A stretch of 32,000 bases of DNA, from NCBI RefSeq assembly GCF_900232105.1, contig NZ_LT934425.1, positions 2,400,001 through 2,432,000 on the forward strand. The letters run 5' to 3'. Origin of the DNA: Candidatus Kuenenia stuttgartensis. Its GTDB lineage: Bacteria; Planctomycetota; Brocadiia; Brocadiales; Brocadiaceae. Shown here one piece after another: positions 13,640-24,196 of this stretch. Every line of letters starts with the position of its first letter. The first letter of the stretch is position 1. The notes under the pieces are model-generated. The model had not been told where the DNA came from and ran no database searches. It worked only from the letters and a program-made list of their open reading frames with translations. The position numbers were made by a program, and so were the translations under genes.

Positions 13640-13744
13640 GTGAAATCAAAAGTAGTTGTTTATAAGACAGAAGAAGGTGGTTACCGGGCAGAAGTTCCGG
13701 CTATCCCTGGTTGTCTTACACAGGGTGATACATTGGAAGAATAA
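13640..13744 (+). pseudogene. hicB: HicB-family antitoxin N-terminal stub (34 codons)
   Basis: My translation from the GTG at 13640 is [34 protein letters not shown] followed by TAA. This matches the UPF0150/HicB N-terminal pattern (..E.GGY.A.VP.LPGC.TQG.TLEEA..) and stops exactly where the helix normally continues. It is below the track's 60-aa cutoff. Confidence 0.55.
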
Positions 13745-13791
13745 TTGCAAAATATCTATGTTTTGCAAAAATAAGAAATGGTTTTGATGTT

Positions 13792-14193
13792 TTGACACAA
13801 CACATTAAAAGACCACACACAGAACAGGATAAAGAAATTTATAGAATTGCTGTAGAAAAATGGAAAAGCAAGATGGGGAGGCTCGATTACAACGATCTCC
13901 CGGAAAGGCTTAAAACCCATAAAAACAGAAACGCTTTCTTAGACAGATTTAAGGTCGTAGCTGATAATGTGAATTATTCACAGACAGTGGTAGCGCATAT
14001 TGCAAAAGACGGACATTATTACATTCATCCTGATATAGAACAAAATCGTTCAATCTCGGTTCGGGAAGCTGCCAGACTGCAATCATTTCCTGACGATTAT
14101 TATTTCGAGGGAGTAAAGGAGGGGAGAAACAGAACTGCTGCTTTTAAACAAATTGGGAATGCCTTGCCGCCACTGATGGGTAAGGCGGCATAA
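13792..14193 (+). pseudogene. dcm: C-5 cytosine DNA methyltransferase, C-terminal fragment only
   Basis: [29 protein letters not shown]...[16 protein letters not shown] corresponds to motifs VIII-X (the QSFPD and GNAxPP blocks). The N-terminal AdoMet motifs (FxGxG) and the catalytic PC motif are absent. The frame is closed by a TGA at 13726-13728, and the track start is a TTG. Confidence 0.75.
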
Positions 14194-14215
14194 ACATCAA
14201 ACAATAATTTTAAAA

Positions 14216-14587
14216 ATGGACTTACAATATATTAAAAATACAATTGTGGAATTGAAAGAAAGAGATAAAATCTACTCTCATGAATTGGAATTAAATACTT
14301 TGGAAGAAGCAAACAAAATTGTTAAAGTTGGCGCTTTAACTGTTGGAACTGATTCAAAAGGAAAAATTATTGCCCAAAATGTTTTATATCCTACTCAGTT
14401 TTCACAAAAGGCAGTTGAAAATATTTTGACAATGAATTGGAGAAACGGAAATGGAGAACGAGTTGAACCTCTTGTGTATGGAAGAAATGACTGGTATCGG
14501 GAAAGGTTGAAAACGATAAATGGTATTTTGAAACTTATGGATGAAAGTAAGACTGAAAACTATGATTCGGTAGAAACCAAAGAATAG
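14216..14587 (+). CDS. Hypothetical 123-aa protein, no recognisable family, first gene of the cassette
   Basis: This is an intact ORF starting at an ATG. Its stop lies 4 nt before the start of the next gene. It is AT-rich like its neighbour. I see no TM segment or signal peptide. Confidence 0.5.
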   Translation: MDLQYIKNTIVELKERDKIYSHELELNTLEEANKIVKVGALTVGTDSKGKIIAQNVLYPTQFSQKAVENILTMNWRNGNGERVEPLVYGRNDWYRERLKTINGILKLMDESKTENYDSVETKE

Positions 14588-14591
14588 CTAT

Positions 14592-16568
14592 ATGCTTAAT
14601 TTCTATTACAAGGATTCTATCGAAACTTTTCAAAATAAAAGCATAGAAGAGATAATTGGTTTGATTGCTTTATCTAATCAATTTGATTCTACTATTAATC
14701 AAAACAAGTCGTGGGAACAACAAATACCTATTCTGAAGAAAGCTTTAGATGGATATTACGGGACAATTTTTTTTGAGTTCTCAATCCCAAGAATGGGAAA
14801 GCGTGTAGACTGTTTAGTTATTATTGATAATATTGTTTTCGTTATTGAATTTAAAGTTGGGGAGAAAGAATTTTTAAGTTACAACATTGACCAAGTTTGG
14901 GATTATGCTCTTGATTTGAAAAACTTCCACAAGCCAAGCCATTCCGCGGTTTTAGCACCGATTTTAGTAGCAACAGAAGCAAAATATTTATTAAACGAGA
15001 TTTCTTTAACCCCGCACAATGATGATTTGATTTTTCCTATAAAGTCGAATAAGGATAACTTACATGATGCAATTAAGAATACATTATTGTTTTTTCGTGG
15101 TAAAACAATAATAAATGGAGATGAGTATGCGAAAGGAAGTTATTCTCCTACCCCAACGATTATAGAAGCAGCCGTTTCACTTTACAACAATCATTCAGTT
15201 GAAGAAATTACCAGAAATGACGCAGAAGCTATAAATCTGAGTAAAACAAGTTCGGCTATATCTGAAATAATTGACTATGCTAAATCCGAAAACAAGAAAG
15301 TAATTTGTTTTGTAACGGGCGTCCCTGGCGCTGGAAAAACTTTAGTAGGATTAAAAGTGGCAACCTTACATTTAGATAATGAAAAAAACAATACAAGTGT
15401 TTATTTATCTGGTAATGCTCCTTTAGTAGCAATTCTTCAAGAAGCTTTGATAAGAGACAAAGTTAATCGGGAAAGAGAACTTGGAAATAGAATAACTAAA
15501 TCAGAGGCGAAAAAAGGAGTAAAAACATTCATACAAATAATTCATCATTACAGAGATGCTTATCTTGTAGACCCAAATCCACCTTATGATCATGTTGCGA
15601 TTTTTGATGAAGCACAAAGGGCATGGAATAAAGATCAGACCGTTAAATTCATGAGGCAAAAAAAGAATCAGAGTAATTTTAATTATTCAGAGCCAGAGTT
15701 TCTCATTTCTTGCCTTGATAGACATAAAGATTGGGCTGTTATCGTTTGTTTAGTTGGAGGTGGGCAGGAAATAAATACTGGAGAGGCAGGAATATCAGAA
15801 TGGTTAAATGCCATTTACAGTAAATTTACTGACTGGGAAGTTTGTATTTCACCAAACCTAACTGATAGTGAATATGCGGCAATCGAATCTATTAGTAAAC
15901 TTCAAGAAAGAGGGGTTACAAAATATAATAAAGATTTACATCTCTCTGTTTCAATGCGGTCTTTCAGGGCAGATAAAGTTTCTTTTTTTGTAAAATCACT
16001 TTTGGACTTAAACGTAGATGAAGTAAAAGAAACGCTATCATCTATCTCAGAAAATTATCCAATTATGTTAACAAGAGATTTAGCAAAAGCAAAGAAATGG
16101 TTGAAACAAAAATCAAGAGGAACCGAACGATACGGAATAGTAGTATCCTCCCAAGCCCAAAGATTAAAGCCCCTTGCAATTGATGTTAAATCCCCAATGA
16201 ATCCTGTAAACTGGTTTTTAGAGGGTAAAGATGATGTTCGTTCTTCCTATTATTTGGAAGATGTTGCAACGGAATTTCATGTTCAGGGCTTGGAGTTGGA
16301 TTGGGCTTGTGTTACTTGGGACGGTGATTTAAGATATTCTGAAAGCGGATGGGGAACTTTTTCTTTTGTTGGTAATAAATGGCAAAACATTCACAAGGAA
16401 GAAAGAAAAAGATATTTGATTAATGCTTACAGAGTATTGTTAACCAGAGCTCGACAAGGAATGGTAATCGTTCTCCCGGAAGGAAATGTTGAAGACCATA
16501 CCAGAAAGCCAGAATACTACGACAAAACTTTCAACTATCTAAAAAGTATCGGTATCAAAACTCTTTAG
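14592..16568 (+). CDS. PD-(D/E)xK nuclease-like N-domain fused to a DUF2075 (Schlafen group-3-type) P-loop NTPase/helicase-like domain
   Basis: The N-terminus FEFSIPRMGKRVDCLVIIDNIVFVIEFKVGEKE has a D...ExK arrangement. Walker A is FVTGVPGAGKT and the Walker B-like block is HVAIFDEAQRAW. VCLVGGGQEI is present, and the C-terminal AYRVLLTRARQGMVIV resembles SF1 motif VI. The overall layout matches my memory of Pfam PF09848. Confidence 0.7.
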   Translation: MLNFYYKDSIETFQNKSIEEIIGLIALSNQFDSTINQNKSWEQQIPILKKALDGYYGTIFFEFSIPRMGKRVDCLVIIDNIVFVIEFKVGEKEFLSYNIDQVWDYALDLKNFHKPSHSAVLAPILVATEAKYLLNEISLTPHNDDLIFPIKSNKDNLHDAIKNTLLFFRGKTIINGDEYAKGSYSPTPTIIEAAVSLYNNHSVEEITRNDAEAINLSKTSSAISEIIDYAKSENKKVICFVTGVPGAGKTLVGLKVATLHLDNEKNNTSVYLSGNAPLVAILQEALIRDKVNRERELGNRITKSEAKKGVKTFIQIIHHYRDAYLVDPNPPYDHVAIFDEAQRAWNKDQTVKFMRQKKNQSNFNYSEPEFLISCLDRHKDWAVIVCLVGGGQEINTGEAGISEWLNAIYSKFTDWEVCISPNLTDSEYAAIESISKLQERGVTKYNKDLHLSVSMRSFRADKVSFFVKSLLDLNVDEVKETLSSISENYPIMLTRDLAKAKKWLKQKSRGTERYGIVVSSQAQRLKPLAIDVKSPMNPVNWFLEGKDDVRSSYYLEDVATEFHVQGLELDWACVTWDGDLRYSESGWGTFSFVGNKWQNIHKEERKRYLINAYRVLLTRARQGMVIVLPEGNVEDHTRKPEYYDKTFNYLKSIGIKTL

Positions 16569-16585
16569 CAGTAATTTCTATTTTC

Positions 16586-16921
16586 TTGAATGAAGCGGAC
16601 AAGGCTATACTTAGAAAGTTTCTTCACGCCAATTCTGACTTTCTAAACATTCTTAATTCTTGGGTTGGCCCAGAAAAACAAATCAGGGATTTGCAGTCAG
16701 GAACATGGAGCGTTGAGATAAAAACAACTCATCAAAACAATCATCAGAAAGTTCACATAAGCAGCGAAAGACAACTTGACACACGTGATATGGGAAATCA
16801 TTTTCTCTATCATCTTTCATTGGAAGCAAGACAACAATCGGGCGAAATATTAAATCAAATTGTTGATTCTGTTTCAGAATATTTAAGTTCTGACATCTTT
16901 ACGAACACACCGGATATTTAA
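16586..16921 (+). pseudogene. DUF4420-type PD-(D/E)XK motif protein, C-terminal-domain fragment
   Basis: SWVGPEKQIRDLQSGTWSVEIKTTHQNNHQKVHISSERQLD matches the W.GP...(H)D(F)......(I/V)E(V/I)KTT......V.ISS..QL core as I remember it. The fragment is only 111 codons, whereas I recall about 300 for the family. The track start is a TTG. Confidence 0.5.
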
Positions 16922-16989
16922 TTCGGCAGGATGTATTCTGCAAAGTAGAAAATGACTTTCCGGGAATTGAGGAGAGAGATATTTGCAGT

Positions 16990-17083: not shown

Positions 17084-17359
17084 TTGTTGTTTCAGGTATT
17101 TATCGATCGGGACATTGAACAGACCCTGCCGGCGGTGAAAGAAACGATTGAGGGTAAAACCGTGTTTTTTGTGGACGATAATGTGCTGACGACCTGTTTT
17201 GATAACGGCATTACCGAAGAGCTGGTGAAACGCCTGGCAAAACGCAAACCCCTGCGTGCGGTATTCCGCGATAGCTCATACGGCAGCGACAGTGTAAAGA
17301 TCAATCTGGAGCGGATATTTAAGATCCTATCTCCATGTACTGATGTCCGATCGATTTAG
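17084..17359 (+). pseudogene. C-terminal tail fragment resembling N6-adenine DNA methyltransferases (type III Mod or type IIG-like)
   Basis: KPLRAVFRDSSYGSDSVKINLERIFKILSPCTDVRSI resembles the conserved tail (..VFRD.GF..D..KIN..QIFK.LSP.T.V..I) that I recall from R-M methyltransferases. There are only 91 codons, the start is a TTG, and no catalytic motifs are present. Confidence 0.4.
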
Positions 17360-17373
17360 GGAAAGAACCACAG

Positions 17374-18605
17374 ATGAATACAGATAAACACGGATTTGGA
17401 TTCGAAAAACTGGTTGTGCTATTTGCGCAGACACAGAGTGAACTACAGAAACAGGCGGCCCGTTCGGTTGATATTGCTTTAGTAATTCGCAACTGGCTCT
17501 TTGGCTGGTATATCGTGGAGTTTGAAAATGGCGGTGCAGAGCGGGCGGAACTGTATGGCAAGAAACTTCTTCAATGCCTTTCTGCGGAGCTCAAACAGGC
17601 TGGGCTGAAAGGTGTTTCACTAACTAATTTGAAGCAGTTCAGGCTGTTTTACGAAACCTACAAAGAGATTGGTCGGGCACCGCCTGACCAATCTTCTATC
17701 GATACAAACAACTGGGGAAAAATTACACAGACTGTGTTTGCGCAATCTCTGAATGTCGATACCCAAAAGATTCGGCAGGCAGCGCCTGACCAATCTCAAG
17801 AAACAAGGGCATGCCTGCAGGAAATCACGGCAAAACTGTCAGCTCGCTTTGTGCTTGGCTGGACGCATTATGTCACGCTTCTCACGGTTAAAAATAGTGA
17901 AGAAAGGCGGTTTTATGAAATTGAAGCCGCAGAAAAAACGGCTGGGGATATCGTGAACTGGAACGTCAGATTAACTCGGCTCTTTATGATCGGCTTGCTT
18001 TGAGTCGTGACAAAGAGGAGGTGAGAAGATTATCCACACATGGACAACTCCTCGAAAAACCGGCGGATGTGATCAAAAATCCTTACATTTTAGAGTTTAC
18101 GGGATTGGAAGAATGCAAAGCATTCAGTGAGCATGATCTGGAAACAGCTCTTATCGACAAAATAGAGTATTTTCTCCTGGAATTGGGTAAGGGGTTCCTG
18201 TTCGAGTCCTGCCAGAAACGCTTCTCCTTCGAGAATCGTCATTTTTATGTAGATCTGGTTTTTTACAACCGACTTCTGCGCTGTTACACTATAATTGACC
18301 TCGAAATTGGTGACTTAAAACATCAGGATTTGGGTCAAATGCAAATGTATGTGAATTATTTCGACCGTTATGTAAAACTCGATGAGGAAAATCCAACGGT
18401 CGGTATTCTGCTCTGTCTCAGCAAAAGTGATGAACTGGTTTAATTGACACTTCCGAAAGATTCCAATATCTACGCATCGGAATATCAACTTTATCTGCCT
18501 TCCAAAGAAGAACTGAAAAACCAACTGGAAGATGCACAACGGGAATGGGAAGCGCACCATGATAAGGAAATACCTGTTCAGAACTTGTGTAGCTATTCAG
18601 CGTAA
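17374..18605 (+). pseudogene. yhcG: YhcG/DUF1016 PD-(D/E)xK nuclease gene, disrupted by a frameshift and an in-frame stop
   Basis: The N-terminal part is AARSVDIALVIRNWLFGWYIVEFENGGAERAELYGKKLL. LGWTHYVTLLTVKNSEERRFYEIEA follows. After the A6 run at 17933-17938 the homologous reading KNGWGYRELERQINSALYDRLALSRDKEEV continues in another frame. The core LLELGKGFLFESCQKRF...FYVDLVFYNRLLRCYTIIDLEIGDLKHQDLGQMQMYVNY follows. A TAA at 18441-18443 then interrupts ..SDELV*LTLPKDSNIYASEYQLYLPSKEELK. Confidence 0.8.
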
Positions 18606-18821: not shown

Positions 18822-18937
18822 CAGTCATCATGTTTCATTTGCGACACCCGGAAACGATGAAAATGGTTTTATAACCATATAGTGTTGTAATATATGTACT
18901 TAAGCTTTTTTTGTAGTCTTACTTTCGAGTCGGAAAC
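18822..18937 (+). repeat. Direct repeat DR1 (about 116 bp)
   Basis: cagtcatcatgtttcatttgcgacacccggaaacgatgaaaatggttttataaccatatagtgttgtaatatatgtacttaagc... is roughly nine-tenths identical by eye to 19344-19460. Weaker similarity extends about 25 nt further upstream. Confidence 0.85.
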
Positions 18938-19039
18938 ATCTGGCATTTCTGTTTATGTACCGGTTCAAATGTGTAGGGCCATCCAAAAGGTATCAGCTTG
19001 TTATTGCAAGGGGCTCGGCTTGTCATTGCAGGGATCTCA

Positions 19040-19247
19040 GCTTGTCATTGCGAGGGTCTTTTCCGAAGCAATCAGTATACTACGAGATATTTCGTGGCGT
19101 AAGAAACGCCATATCGCGGGAGAGGCAAATTAAGGGTGGCTCAAGGGCTAAAAAAAATAGAATTAATTAATGGAATGAATGCAGGATGGAAGGATCGCTA
19201 TGACGGTTTATGAGATTGCTTCGGAAAAGACCCTCGCAATGACAAGC
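19040..19247. mobile_element. Inverted-repeat-bounded GIY-YIG cassette remnant
   Basis: There are 34-bp perfect inverted repeats: gcttgtcattgcgagggtcttttccgaagcaatc (19040-19073) and gattgcttcggaaaagaccctcgcaatgacaagc (19214-19247). Further degenerate cttgt(c/t)attgc units lie outside both arms. The arms abut the gene stub to within 1 nt. Confidence 0.7.
19075..19213 (+). pseudogene. GIY-YIG nuclease family protein, C-terminal stub with a frameshift
   Basis: VYYEIFRGVRNAISRERQIKGGSRAKK is followed, after the A8 run at 19150-19157, by a shifted frame reading IELINGMNAGWKDRYDGL*. This matches the family tail (.YYE.F....AI.REKQIK.WSR.KK..LI...NP.W.DL). The GIY...YIG N-terminal half is absent. 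Confidence 0.6.
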
Positions 19248-19343
19248 CGATGCCCTTGTAAATGACAAGCATGTGGTTTTGGTATGATGGATAGAGAATC
19301 GGGTTTCTAATCCGCTTCCACTTGTAATGACAAAATAAGTCAT

Positions 19344-19460
19344 CAGTCATCATGTTGCATTTGCAACACCCAGAAACGATGAAAATGGTTTTATAACCAT
19401 ATAATGTTGTAATATATGTACTTAAGCTATTTTTTGTATTCTTACTTCCGAGACTGAAAT
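19344..19460 (+). repeat. Direct repeat DR2, immediately upstream of the 19477 gene
   Basis: This is the second copy of DR1, 522 bp downstream of it. It carries the intact palindromes tgttgcatttgcaaca and atggttttataaccat and a tataat hexamer. DR1 has tgtttcatttgcgaca and tatagt at the same places. Confidence 0.85.
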
Positions 19461-22078: not shown

Positions 22079-24196
22079 ATGGCACAATTTAAAGTGGAGA
22101 AGTTGATCGGCAATAGAGCGCTTAGCATAGAAACAGGCCGGGTCGCAAGGCAGGCTGATGGTGCCGTATTAGTGCAATATGGCGAAACTATAGTATTGGT
22201 TACAGCGGTTTCTGCATCAGAAGAAAAGGGAAACGTAGATTTTCTTCCACTTACCGTCGATTACCGGGAAAAGACATACGCTGCCGGGAAATTTCCTGGC
22301 GGTTTTTTCAAGAGAGAAGGAAGACCTTCTCAAAAAGAAATCCTCACCATGCGGTTGATAGACCGCCCTATCAGACCACTCTTTCCGGATACGTACTTCC
22401 GCGAAGTGCAGGTTATGTCAATAGTGCTTTCCGCAGATAAGGAAAATGATCCTGATATACTTGCGATGGTGGGCGCTTCCGCCGCATTATCCATTTCAAG
22501 CATTCCCTTTAGCAAACCTACTGGCTCGGTAAGAGTTGGGCAAATTGAAGGGAAATTTATTATCAACCCCACACATGCCGAGTTGGCACAAAGCAGCATG
22601 GATATTGTTGTCTCCGGGACAGAGGATGCCGTTATGATGGTTGAGGCGTCTGCAAAGGAAATTCCCGAAGAACAGATGGTGGATGCCATTATGTTTGGAC
22701 ATGCGGCTATAAAAGAAATCATAACTCTTCAACACGAACTTATTGAAAAATGCGGAAAAGAAAAGCAAATTGTTGCTCCTTCCATGATGAATAAAGAACT
22801 CATGGAAGAAGTTAAACAAAAATATTATACCGCTATTGTAGAAAAGAATCTGACTCCTGGAAAAGGATACCGAAAAGAAGCGCTTGATGAAATACTTGCG
22901 GCCATAATTAATGAATACTGTGTAGAAGGCGTCGAAAATGCACCTACACCAAAAGAAATTAAAGCAATATTTGAGACAGTTGAAACAATTGTAGTCCGGG
23001 AACAAATAGTGTCTAAAGGATTGCGACCCGATTCCCGCGGATTGAAGGATATAAGACCTATTACCTGTGAGGTTGGCATTCTCCCCAGAGTACATGGCTC
23101 TGCTTTGTTTACAAGGGGAGAAACACAGGCAATTGTTGTGGTAACCCTAGGTACCACATCGGACGAACAAAAAGTGGACGGACTTGAAGATGAATATTCA
23201 AAGAAATTTATGCTGGATTACAATTTTCCGCCTTTTTGTGTTGGTGAAACAAAGCCGTTGCGAGGTCCTGGCAGGAGAGAAATCGGGCATGGCGCATTGG
23301 CGGAGCGGGCACTGGCAGAAGTCCTTCCACCACCGAACAAATTCCCTTACACAACCCGTGTGGTGTCTGATATAACCGAATCTAACGGGTCTTCTTCGAT
23401 GGCATCAGTTTGCGGCGGGACGCTTGCTTTAATGGATGCCGGTGTGCCTATAAAAGCTCCTGTAGCCGGCATTGCTATGGGTTTGGTGAAAGAAGAGAAC
23501 AGTGTATGTATTTTATCTGACATATTAGGGACCGAAGATCACCTGGGAGATATGGATTTTAAGGTTGCAGGCACCGCGCAGGGCGTAACTGCTTTGCAAA
23601 TGGATATAAAAATTGCTGGAATTACTGAGAAAATAATGCGTGATGCACTGGCGCAAGCCAGGGAGGGCAGGCTTCATATTCTTCAGGAACTGGAAAAAGT
23701 CATTGAAAAACCGAGAGAAAAAATTTCTGTATACGCGCCAAAAATTGTACAGATTAAAATTAACCCGGAAAAAATCGGAATGATTATTGGCCCTGGCGGA
23801 AAAAACATAAAGAAAATACAGGAAGAAACCGGGGCAAAAATTGAAATTGAAGATGATGGAACGGTAATCATTTCCGCAACCCTTGGTGAATCGGCAGAAA
23901 AAGCAAAAACATGGATTGAAAATATGACGAAGGAAGTTGAGGTTGGAAAAACGTATAAGGGAAAAGTTTTATCAATAAAAGAATATGGGGCGTTTGTTGA
24001 GATAATTCCCGGGCACGATGGCTTGGTACATATTTCCGAGCTTTCTTACGAATATGTTGAAAAGGCGGGTGATGTTGTGGAGGTAGGCCAGGAAATAATG
24101 ATAAAAGTAATCGGCATAGATGACCAGAAGAGAGTCAAATTAAGCAGGAAAGCTGCTTTAAAGGAAAGCGAACAACCCCTTACTCCTAAGAATTAA
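22079..24196 (+). CDS. pnp: Polyribonucleotide nucleotidyltransferase (PNPase)
   Basis: 705 aa with two RNase PH domains (FLPLTVDYREKTYAAGKFPGGFFKREGRPS; TEDHLGDMDFKVAGT). KH (GMIIGPGGKNIKKIQEETGAKIEI) and S1 (GKVLSIKEYGAFVEI) domains follow. It is directly downstream of rpsO, as is typical. Confidence 0.97.
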   Translation: MAQFKVEKLIGNRALSIETGRVARQADGAVLVQYGETIVLVTAVSASEEKGNVDFLPLTVDYREKTYAAGKFPGGFFKREGRPSQKEILTMRLIDRPIRPLFPDTYFREVQVMSIVLSADKENDPDILAMVGASAALSISSIPFSKPTGSVRVGQIEGKFIINPTHAELAQSSMDIVVSGTEDAVMMVEASAKEIPEEQMVDAIMFGHAAIKEIITLQHELIEKCGKEKQIVAPSMMNKELMEEVKQKYYTAIVEKNLTPGKGYRKEALDEILAAIINEYCVEGVENAPTPKEIKAIFETVETIVVREQIVSKGLRPDSRGLKDIRPITCEVGILPRVHGSALFTRGETQAIVVVTLGTTSDEQKVDGLEDEYSKKFMLDYNFPPFCVGETKPLRGPGRREIGHGALAERALAEVLPPPNKFPYTTRVVSDITESNGSSSMASVCGGTLALMDAGVPIKAPVAGIAMGLVKEENSVCILSDILGTEDHLGDMDFKVAGTAQGVTALQMDIKIAGITEKIMRDALAQAREGRLHILQELEKVIEKPREKISVYAPKIVQIKINPEKIGMIIGPGGKNIKKIQEETGAKIEIEDDGTVIISATLGESAEKAKTWIENMTKEVEVGKTYKGKVLSIKEYGAFVEIIPGHDGLVHISELSYEYVEKAGDVVEVGQEIMIKVIGIDDQKRVKLSRKAALKESEQPLTPKN

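Follow-up and report, generated by a model that had tools for sequence, protein, structure and literature searches.

What kind of defence system is encoded by two intact genes in an otherwise decayed defence island of Candidatus Kuenenia stuttgartensis, and what does the smaller of their two products do? The genes lie on contig NZ_LT934425.1 in a 32,000-nucleotide (nt) stretch (positions 2,400,001 to 2,432,000), which in its full length is called the window here and to which all positions refer unless another locus is named. The small gene (14216-14587, forward strand; ATG start, TAG stop ending at 14587) encodes a protein of 123 amino acids (aa), and the large gene (14592-16568, forward strand; ATG start) encodes a putative nuclease-helicase of 658 aa. 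As the original prediction for this stretch had stated, only 4 nt (CTAT) separate the end of the first open reading frame (ORF) at 14587 from the ATG of the second at 14592, and the two are the only undamaged ORFs between 13.5 and 19.5 kb, where each neighbour covers only part of its own profile. An intact pair inside a decayed defence island is a correct description of the locus. However, the further idea of a two-gene cassette survived only in part: both ORFs are intact, but they are not the evolutionary unit, since the ancestral unit comprised Vsr, a 5-methylcytosine (m5C) methylase, the small gene and the nuclease. Taken as a whole, the locus is best explained, with a probability that we put at roughly 0.6, as the remnant of a four-gene operon with an Nhi-like, stand-alone nuclease-helicase and a small protein that serves as a gate.

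The four-gene operon and its lost methylase half

In other genomes, whose homologues bear Candidatus Brocadia names (the closest locus also has an anammox-type multihaem gene nearby), the operon consists of genes for Vsr (125 to 150 aa), a C5 cytosine DNA methylase (400 to 405 aa), the small protein (123 aa) and the nuclease (658 aa), followed by AIPR genes. All four genes are intact in L004, L007 to L011, L091 and L093, as well as in the distant lineages L076, L096, L110 and L113. The window has in common with these genomes a block (13753-16987) that starts inside a truncated methylase gene and that, compared with positions 9539-12836 of L091, is 98% identical up to 16893 and 91% identical up to 16987. 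Homology to L091, L004 and L007 starts exactly at 13753, approximately 778 nt into their intact 400- to 405-aa methylase genes, and the window has therefore lost Vsr and approximately 260 methylase codons. At the level of sequence homology, these alignments show a deletion with its right edge at 13753 that removed both, and they show the pair to be the surviving 3′ half of a horizontally acquired operon for Vsr, a DrmMII-like m5C methylase, the small protein and the predicted nuclease-helicase.

What is left of the methylase gene (13753..14193, ORF 13792-14193, forward strand) amounts to approximately the last 145 of 405 codons. The remnant matches Pfam DNA_methylase (E = 9.7e-12, profile positions 217-316 of 324) and the PADLOC profile DrmMII PDLC02649 (E = 2.7e-63, positions 286-408 of 422). 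The 3′ end of the block common to other Brocadia genomes is formed by a fragment of a DUF4420/MzaD-like PD-(D/E)xK gene (16586..16987, ORF 16586-16921, forward strand; Pfam DUF4420, E = 1.8e-21, positions 146-242 of 306), which is truncated in L091 too (139 aa).

Decay of the methylase is not confined to the window. Relatives of the large protein were collected from 80 genome loci (68 to 95% identical), and relatives of the small protein from 38 metagenome loci and one IMG/VR viral contig (41 to 98% identical), which together with the earlier loci make 46 small-family loci with some redundancy. A DrmMII-like methylase, Vsr or remnants of these lie upstream of the small gene in approximately 31 of the 39 metagenome loci, where they are intact in a minority only; assignment to the methylase family is illustrated by L110 (PDLC02649, E = 3e-146). 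Internal deletions of the methylase gene and stubs of 40 to 160 aa are common beside small and nuclease genes of full length, and in several loci (L028, L105, L116, L119 and L122) the methylase is reduced to such a stub or has left no trace. That the methylase has so often decayed while the small gene and the nuclease stayed intact speaks against a classical restriction enzyme, which would rely on its methylase for self-protection. The reverse order of decay is seen once, on the Brocadia-like contig L094 (460-4052; small protein 97% identical), where an intact methylase gene is combined with a DUF2075 gene broken into two ORFs.

Base composition sets the block apart from its surroundings. The G+C values counted by hand in the original prediction were reproduced exactly, at 26.7% for both 14641-14700 and 15361-15420, 46.7% for 16261-16320 and 48.3% for 22141-22200, the last of which lies inside a genuine pnp gene (22079-24196; RNase_PH, KH, S1 and PNPase domains). 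Over the whole block 13753-16987, G+C is 34.5% versus approximately 41% in the flanks, and at third codon positions (GC3) it is 25% in the small and large genes versus 41 to 46% in flanking genes. The closest non-Brocadia relatives of the large protein (79 to 81% identity) are mostly metagenome or Bacteroidota/Syntrophaceae sequences. This origin of the nearest relatives and the low GC3 support the horizontal acquisition of the cassette that had been proposed.

The small gene (dN/dS approximately 0.3 relative to three Brocadia orthologues) and the large gene (approximately 0.14) are both real and under purifying selection. The large protein also retains 262 of the 263 columns that are at least 97% conserved among 78 non-Brocadia homologues, the exception being the conservative change E458D. 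Codon 37 of the small gene (14324-14326) specifies K in the window and E in close relatives except P0001/L092. An inactivating change tied to the loss of the methylase was considered for this E37K difference and was rejected, as position 37 is unconserved in the wider small-protein family.

The large protein and its relatives

The large protein had been placed among Schlafen-type NTPases, and the profile search bore this out. Its match to Pfam PF09848 (SLFN-g3 helicase, formerly DUF2075) scores 274 bits against a cut-off of 24 (E = 2.8e-81), and the P-loop helicase domain so defined (15297..16478, forward strand; aa 236-629) covers profile positions 1-353 of 354. Over its entire length (residues 1-658) it matches positions 1-653 of 657 of the PADLOC profile PDC-S41 (E = 9.8e-284, 940.7 bits). 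Judged by these matches, it is a member of PDC-S41, a catalogued candidate family of single-gene phage defence, and thus of a known kind. The candidate anti-phage module of the original prediction is upheld in this respect, for the large protein but not for a two-gene unit. NCBIfam contains no family for the protein, and searches of PDB sequences with the single sequence and with a profile gave no match. More than 8000 homologues score below E = 1e-10; many of them are 658 aa long, are 75 to 81% identical and come from Bacteroidota, Syntrophaceae, Desulfobacterales and others.

All of the motifs that had been read from the translation were located in the large protein, on the forward strand. 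These included the Walker A motif GVPGAGKT (15318-15341, aa 243-250), the Walker B motif (DEAQ) in IFDEAQRAW (within 15600-15626; aa 337-345, with IFDEAQ at aa 337-342), LLTRARQGMVIV near the end of the helicase domain (16437-16472, aa 616-627) and the D...ExK segment RVDCLVIIDNIVFVIEFKVGEKE (14802..14870, aa 71-93; RVD...EFK, with D73, E86 and K88). Walker A and Walker B are intact, and the NTPase motifs are nearly invariant across the family.

The N-terminal domain (14592..15296, forward strand; aa 1-235) has no Pfam match, to a nuclease domain or otherwise, and its assignment as a predicted PD-(D/E)xK nuclease comes from conservation and modelling. Residues E62, D73, E86 and K88 are invariant among 19 homologues. 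An AlphaFold2 (AF2) model of the domain (mean predicted local distance difference test [pLDDT] score, 74.7) contains a helix (35-52), three strands (58-61, 74-78 and 81-88), a second helix (96-112) and a further strand (120-127), which corresponds to an alpha-beta-beta-beta-alpha-beta core. D73 is located just before the second strand and E86-x-K88 within the third. Nearly all top Foldseek matches are PD-(D/E)xK nucleases, including VC1899, McrC (probability 0.97), Cdn1/Can2/Card1, Mus81, EcoO109I, the nuclease domain of DdmD, the Cas4-like ACE1 and Hjc. With the invariant residues, the predicted core and these matches, each of them weak, a PD-(D/E)xK nuclease as originally proposed is well supported but not proven.

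The layout of the large protein, an N-terminal PD-(D/E)xK domain of approximately 230 aa followed by a DUF2075 superfamily 1 (SF1) helicase in one polypeptide of approximately 600 to 660 aa, is common to Nhi (SERP2475) of Staphylococcus epidermidis and to Nhi-like proteins. In Nhi, the N-terminal domain of approximately 230 aa has nickase and 3′-5′ exonuclease activity, and immunity requires both this PD-(D/E)xK domain and the DUF2075 helicase (Bari et al.). Nhi-like proteins are validated single-protein defences (Millman et al.), and one Nhi homologue was toxic when overexpressed. By analogy, the large protein probably works like Nhi, combining sequence-nonspecific nicking or exonuclease activity with helicase activity on phage DNA. 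Published accounts of Nhi describe a protein that acts alone and mention no methylase or small partner, and PDC-S41 is likewise catalogued as a single gene; in the window and in a minority of relatives, however, it is the last gene of an operon with Vsr, the methylase and the small gene. The eukaryotic Schlafen group 3 proteins (SLFN5/11/13) also contain PF09848. In contrast to these, the large protein lacks the N-terminal tRNA/RNase "slfn core" and has the PD-(D/E)xK domain instead, and no Schlafen chain was recovered from PDB by sequence search.

The genomic neighbourhood of PDC-S41 is mixed. Among the 138 nearest neighbours in 75 loci, the most frequent families were C5 methylases, found five times, Fic and HNH_2, four times each, Nudix, three times, and NERD, RE_HpaII and ResIII, twice each, interspersed with housekeeping genes (counts without a background control). 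Given the two RE_HpaII genes, some of these methylases may be part of ordinary neighbouring Type II systems. Directly upstream of PDC-S41, a 56-aa zinc-ribbon gene was present in five loci (L018, L022, L024, L029 and L036), a Nudix hydrolase gene in three (L080, L081 and L089) and a MazG-like (L083) or HIT-like (L088) gene in one locus each. These upstream genes, which are unrelated to the small gene, follow subclades of the nuclease tree; in other loci the upstream position is empty. This pattern of gene order suggests that PDC-S41 has several alternative accessory genes. ORFs of approximately 1600 aa adjoin PDC-S41 in four unrelated genomes (L025:8385-13187, L049:1180-5997, L056:8099-12928 and L087:1035-5834).

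More distant relatives of the large protein occur on a Persicobacter plasmid and a gut phage contig (48% identity) and on Bacillus cereus megaplasmids (29%), and none of these has the small gene upstream. On the B. cereus plasmid NZ_CP085507.1 (L134, 313248-315083), the full-length, 29%-identical homologue, annotated as "DNA/RNA helicase domain-containing protein," stands alone. A Shedu SduA gene and an HNH endonuclease gene are found a few kilobases away on such B. cereus-group megaplasmids.

The small-protein family and its changing partners

The small protein had no match in Pfam, NCBIfam, PADLOC, PHROGs or PDB sequences, whether searched as a single sequence or as a profile, and its family had none among phage and plasmid records. 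Nineteen close homologues were found, and a profile search of 1.84 billion representatives extended the family to 117 clusters at 50% identity, nearly all of them stand-alone proteins of 100 to 130 aa, from many bacterial phyla and at least one viral contig. In a set of 51 diverse members, T42, P59 and W93 are the sole invariant residues; conservation elsewhere is confined to hydrophobic or aromatic positions. With no conserved charged residue and an isoelectric point (pI) that spans 4.7 to 9.7, the protein is unlikely to be an enzyme, a mimic of DNA or a basic DNA binder of the classical type. The best AF2 model (pLDDT, 87.7) has a long helix at each end; between the two lie three strands, a short helix and a fourth strand (alpha-beta-beta-beta-alpha-beta-alpha). 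It resembles unnamed phage proteins of 110 to 135 aa in BFVD (template modelling [TM] score, 0.57 to 0.69; probability, 1.0).

Several more specific identities were considered for the small protein and rejected. The order of its structural elements would be compatible with a tiny restriction enzyme or an inactivated PD-(D/E)xK domain; however, it has no conserved acidic or lysine residues, and there is no nuclease among the fold matches. A DNA mimic or an acidic antitoxin was rejected on the pI range given above. Fusion proteins were uninformative, as the long profile matches were repetitive or low-complexity proteins or unannotated extensions. Among papers that mention DUF2075, none was found that treats the small family or its modular arrangement, and both the family and its fixed place between methylase and nuclease appear to be undescribed.

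Whether the small ORF is conserved upstream of this DUF2075 clade received a different answer from each side. It is present in only 3 of the 78 non-Brocadia large-protein loci (L028, L076 and L016, the last with a 42-aa remnant) and absent from the other 75 (68 to 81% identical), and the small-linked genes occupy three separate positions on the nuclease tree. The nuclease therefore does not need the small protein. Seen from the small gene, a nuclease or NTPase gene follows in 40 of the 44 readable loci. The gene directly 3′ of it encodes PDC-S41 in 22 of the 46 loci, a 256- to 260-aa HNH_2 protein in 10, a PLD-helicase-DUF3427 protein (PADLOC mREase_IV, SauUSI architecture) in 4, a NOV_C/DUF3883 protein (PDC-S36) in 3 and, in L112, an McrB-like AAA protein that is itself followed by a DUF2357/PDDEXK_7 protein. 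A Nudix gene (L123) accounts for one further locus and unknown genes for three, and in two loci the contig stops before the downstream gene is complete. Coupling to the four other nuclease families is just as tight as to PDC-S41, with spacings from a 4-nt overlap to a gap of approximately 30 nt and start/stop overlaps of 1 or 4 nt in relatives. Given the few PDC-S41 relatives with the small gene and its other nuclease partners, the proposal of a dedicated sensor or inhibitor of the Schlafen-type NTPase was not borne out.

Exchange of the downstream gene can be followed in the DNA itself. Partner types are intermixed on the small-protein tree, and homology between PDC-S41- and HNH-linked loci (L114/L121, L113/L129 and L126/L113) spans the methylase 3′ end and the small gene and ends 10 to 14 nt before the small gene's stop codon; the nuclease has therefore been exchanged at exactly that boundary. 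As aligned, these loci show a small gene family that stands directly 5′ of an interchangeable restriction-type nuclease, with the swap at the small gene's 3′ end. HerA-NurA genes, a ThsA-Macro gene, an N6 methylase with a MORC-like ATPase and Bro-N genes are found nearby, and the small-family loci are real defence islands.

Some of these loci also contain genes of viral or integrative-element type. On a contig classed as viral (L001/L131, IMG/VR UViG 3300009868_000073), a small-family gene is accompanied by portal, Mu-F and capsid genes, and the gene that follows it, which the contig end truncates to 88 aa, is unrelated to DUF2075. Small-family loci (L129:359-2212 and L126:1257-4703) are also found beside a DUF3987/PriCT_2 primase-like gene and beside a HerA-NurA pair. 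The DUF3987/PriCT_2 gene is typical of integrative elements, which suggests that small-family cassettes travel on mobile elements.

Two groups of described systems resemble this arrangement in part. Controller (C) proteins of restriction systems are likewise encoded by a small gene just upstream of the nuclease gene, often overlapping it, and they too occur with many unrelated nucleases. The likeness is positional only, as the small protein lacks a helix-turn-helix (HTH), has the alpha-beta-beta-beta-alpha-beta-alpha fold in its model and is preceded by no common operator-like motif. The second group consists of SauUSI-type Type IV enzymes and the neighbourhood of the McaZI group. SauUSI-like (PLD, helicase and DUF3427) and NOV_C/DUF3883 genes are among the alternative partners of the small gene, and DUF2075 NTPases and C5 methylases have been reported to adjoin modification-dependent nucleases (Lutz et al. 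2019). By contrast, the nuclease in the window shows no domain recognisable as a modification reader, and the conserved small gene is absent from that published description.

We propose that the PDC-S41 protein most likely loads on invading phage or plasmid DNA, as its architecture and the work on Nhi would suggest, that its helicase would spend ATP to unwind DNA or to translocate and that its N-terminal nuclease would nick or degrade the invading DNA. Since a partner gene is missing beside most of its close relatives, it probably works as a stand-alone effector. The small protein most likely acts as a non-enzymatic gate, either a regulator or an adaptor, over the expression or activity of whichever nuclease follows it, and this gate may originally have been coordinated with the methylase module. 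As the methylase is dead in the window, the pair could act only independently of methylation, or would be heading for decay. The support for a regulator is positional, with neither an HTH nor a common palindrome upstream.

Several observations weigh against this reading, and above all the role of the small protein is pure inference and unproven. A single adaptor is hard to square with five unrelated nuclease families, and the presence of an m5C methylase and Type IV-like, methyl-directed nucleases in one operon, with the methylase often decayed, is not accounted for by this reading. Only one of the five AF2 models of the small protein is confident (the other four score 50 to 57), the best model found no PDB fold match, and neither an HTH family (Pfam, NCBIfam) nor any DNA-binding domain was detected. 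Upstream of the small gene, 16 loci have in common only AT-rich 8-mers and no palindrome or operator-like motif, although this is a weak test. For the large protein, the fold matches of the N-terminal domain are individually weak (E = 2e-3 to 0.5; TM score, at most 0.36), and none of the PADLOC models bearing the name Nhi gave a match at E ≤ 0.1. The link to Nhi is one of architecture, and the relationship seen at the sequence level is confined to the common PF09848 domain. No mention of PDC-S41 in the literature searched, and no experimental support for its role in defence, was found. Finally, the small-family loci come from targeted pattern scans and are not an unbiased census.

A self-contained two-component defence, with the small protein as a sensor, inhibitor or adaptor dedicated to the DUF2075 nuclease-helicase, would fit the tight spacing (4 nt here, overlaps of 1 or 4 nt in relatives), the selection that keeps both genes intact and the fact that the pair has outlasted the methylase in the window, L002, L100, L105, L119, L120 and L122. 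We nevertheless consider it unlikely in view of the 75 of 78 non-Brocadia close relatives without the small gene, of closely related small proteins that precede HNH, SauUSI-like, NOV_C and McrBC-like genes and of a small-protein tree that does not follow the type of partner. The same distribution bears on a toxin-antitoxin-like arrangement, in which the small protein would neutralise the nuclease until infection destabilised it and the freed nuclease caused abortive infection. Although the upstream, translationally coupled small gene and the toxicity of one overexpressed Nhi homologue would agree with this, most PDC-S41 genes have no small gene beside them, one antitoxin family would face five unrelated nucleases, and the family is not consistently acidic, which makes a DNA-mimic role unlikely; such an arrangement is very improbable.

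The remaining alternatives turn on the methylase. NTP-dependent restriction enzymes with m5C methylase partners exist, among them LlaJI, BsuMI and CglI/NgoAVII, which resemble the operon in combining an m5C methylase, often with Vsr, and an NTPase-driven nuclease. However, they are not known to be homologous to PDC-S41 or to have a counterpart of the small protein, and in the present family the methylase is frequently dispensable. In a classical restriction-modification operon the nuclease, either alone or aided by the small protein as a subunit for specificity or assembly, would cut DNA that lacks the methylase's m5C mark, and the copy in the window would have to be silent, under the protection of another methylase or close to being lost. 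The packed order of methylase, small gene and nuclease with Vsr is typical of m5C systems, and the intact methylase beside a split nuclease gene in L094 is as expected of classical restriction-modification. The small gene and nuclease are intact beside a decayed or absent methylase in approximately two thirds of the assessable loci, which would be lethal in such a system; only the last 133 to 145 methylase codons remain in the window, most PDC-S41 genes have no adjacent methylase (5 of the 138 nearest neighbours), and some of the partners are Type IV-like and expected to cut methylated DNA. Classical restriction-modification is improbable on these counts. The small protein could instead serve the methylase/Vsr module, for example as an accessory of methylation or very-short-patch repair, so that its adjacency to the nuclease would result from packing and recombination and the copy in the window would be a passenger that has not yet decayed. 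Homology that continues unbroken from the methylase 3′ end across the small gene but stops before the nuclease would favour such a role, as would the same methylase family or its remnants upstream in most loci and the higher dN/dS of the small gene than of the nuclease. We doubt it, as the small gene is intact where the methylase is down to 40 to 160 aa or gone (L028, L105, L116, L119 and L122, independent lineages), as no locus has methylase and small gene without a following nuclease and as the start and stop codons of small gene and nuclease overlap. A broader possibility, tentative and on balance not favoured, is that the small protein is the non-catalytic "hub" of an undescribed modular restriction architecture, which would link the methylase/Vsr module to interchangeable nuclease cassettes (PDC-S41, HNH, SauUSI-like, NOV_C and McrBC-like) as a gate between self and non-self. 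It might, for example, read the methylation state through its conserved aromatic residues or time the expression of the nuclease; the small gene would then double as a homology handle for the exchange of cassettes, and decay of the methylase would record conflicts after a methyl-directed nuclease had been swapped in.

If the operon remnant with a stand-alone effector and a gating small protein is the correct reading, its interest lies in the small family. The large gene alone adds little, being a further member of a catalogued candidate family with the layout of Nhi, whereas the small family comprises approximately 117 clusters that have no annotation, known domain or solved relative and that occupy one fixed position. 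Should the small protein indeed gate or adapt nucleases, it would be a new common control element of restriction-like defence, with a reach comparable to that of C proteins or BrxR-type regulators, and it would offer a handle on m5C methylases that occur in one operon with methyl-directed nucleases. A hidden Markov model (HMM) of the small family could mark new nuclease cassettes.

Surroundings of the pair in the window

The genes on either side of the block are remnants as well. Directly left of the breakpoint at 13753, a 34-aa ORF (13640-13744) matches only the first 30 to 40 or so positions of HicB/UPF0150 antitoxin profiles at sub-cut-off scores (E approximately 5e-4) and is a HicB-like N-terminal stub, one more remnant of the island. 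To the right, the C terminus of a Type III methylase (17084-17359, forward strand) matches positions 532-620 of 621 of PADLOC MTase_III. It is followed by a YhcG/PDC-S02 gene that is shortened and split at approximately 18000 (17374-18003 and 18000-18443, forward strand), with DUF1016_N and YhcG_C on separate ORFs.

Around the cassette, predicted promoters did not exceed shuffled expectation and no terminator was seen. The window contains no tRNA genes, and Rfam had no match within 13 to 20 kb. At the edge of the island, two direct repeats of approximately 91 to 115 nt (18822-18936 and 19344-19459) are 95% identical to each other. Between them lie three tandem units of 22 nt (18993-19059) and an inverted repeat of 48 nt (19026-19073 and 19214-19261). 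This segment (18822-19459), likewise without an Rfam match, could be a small mobile or repeat element.

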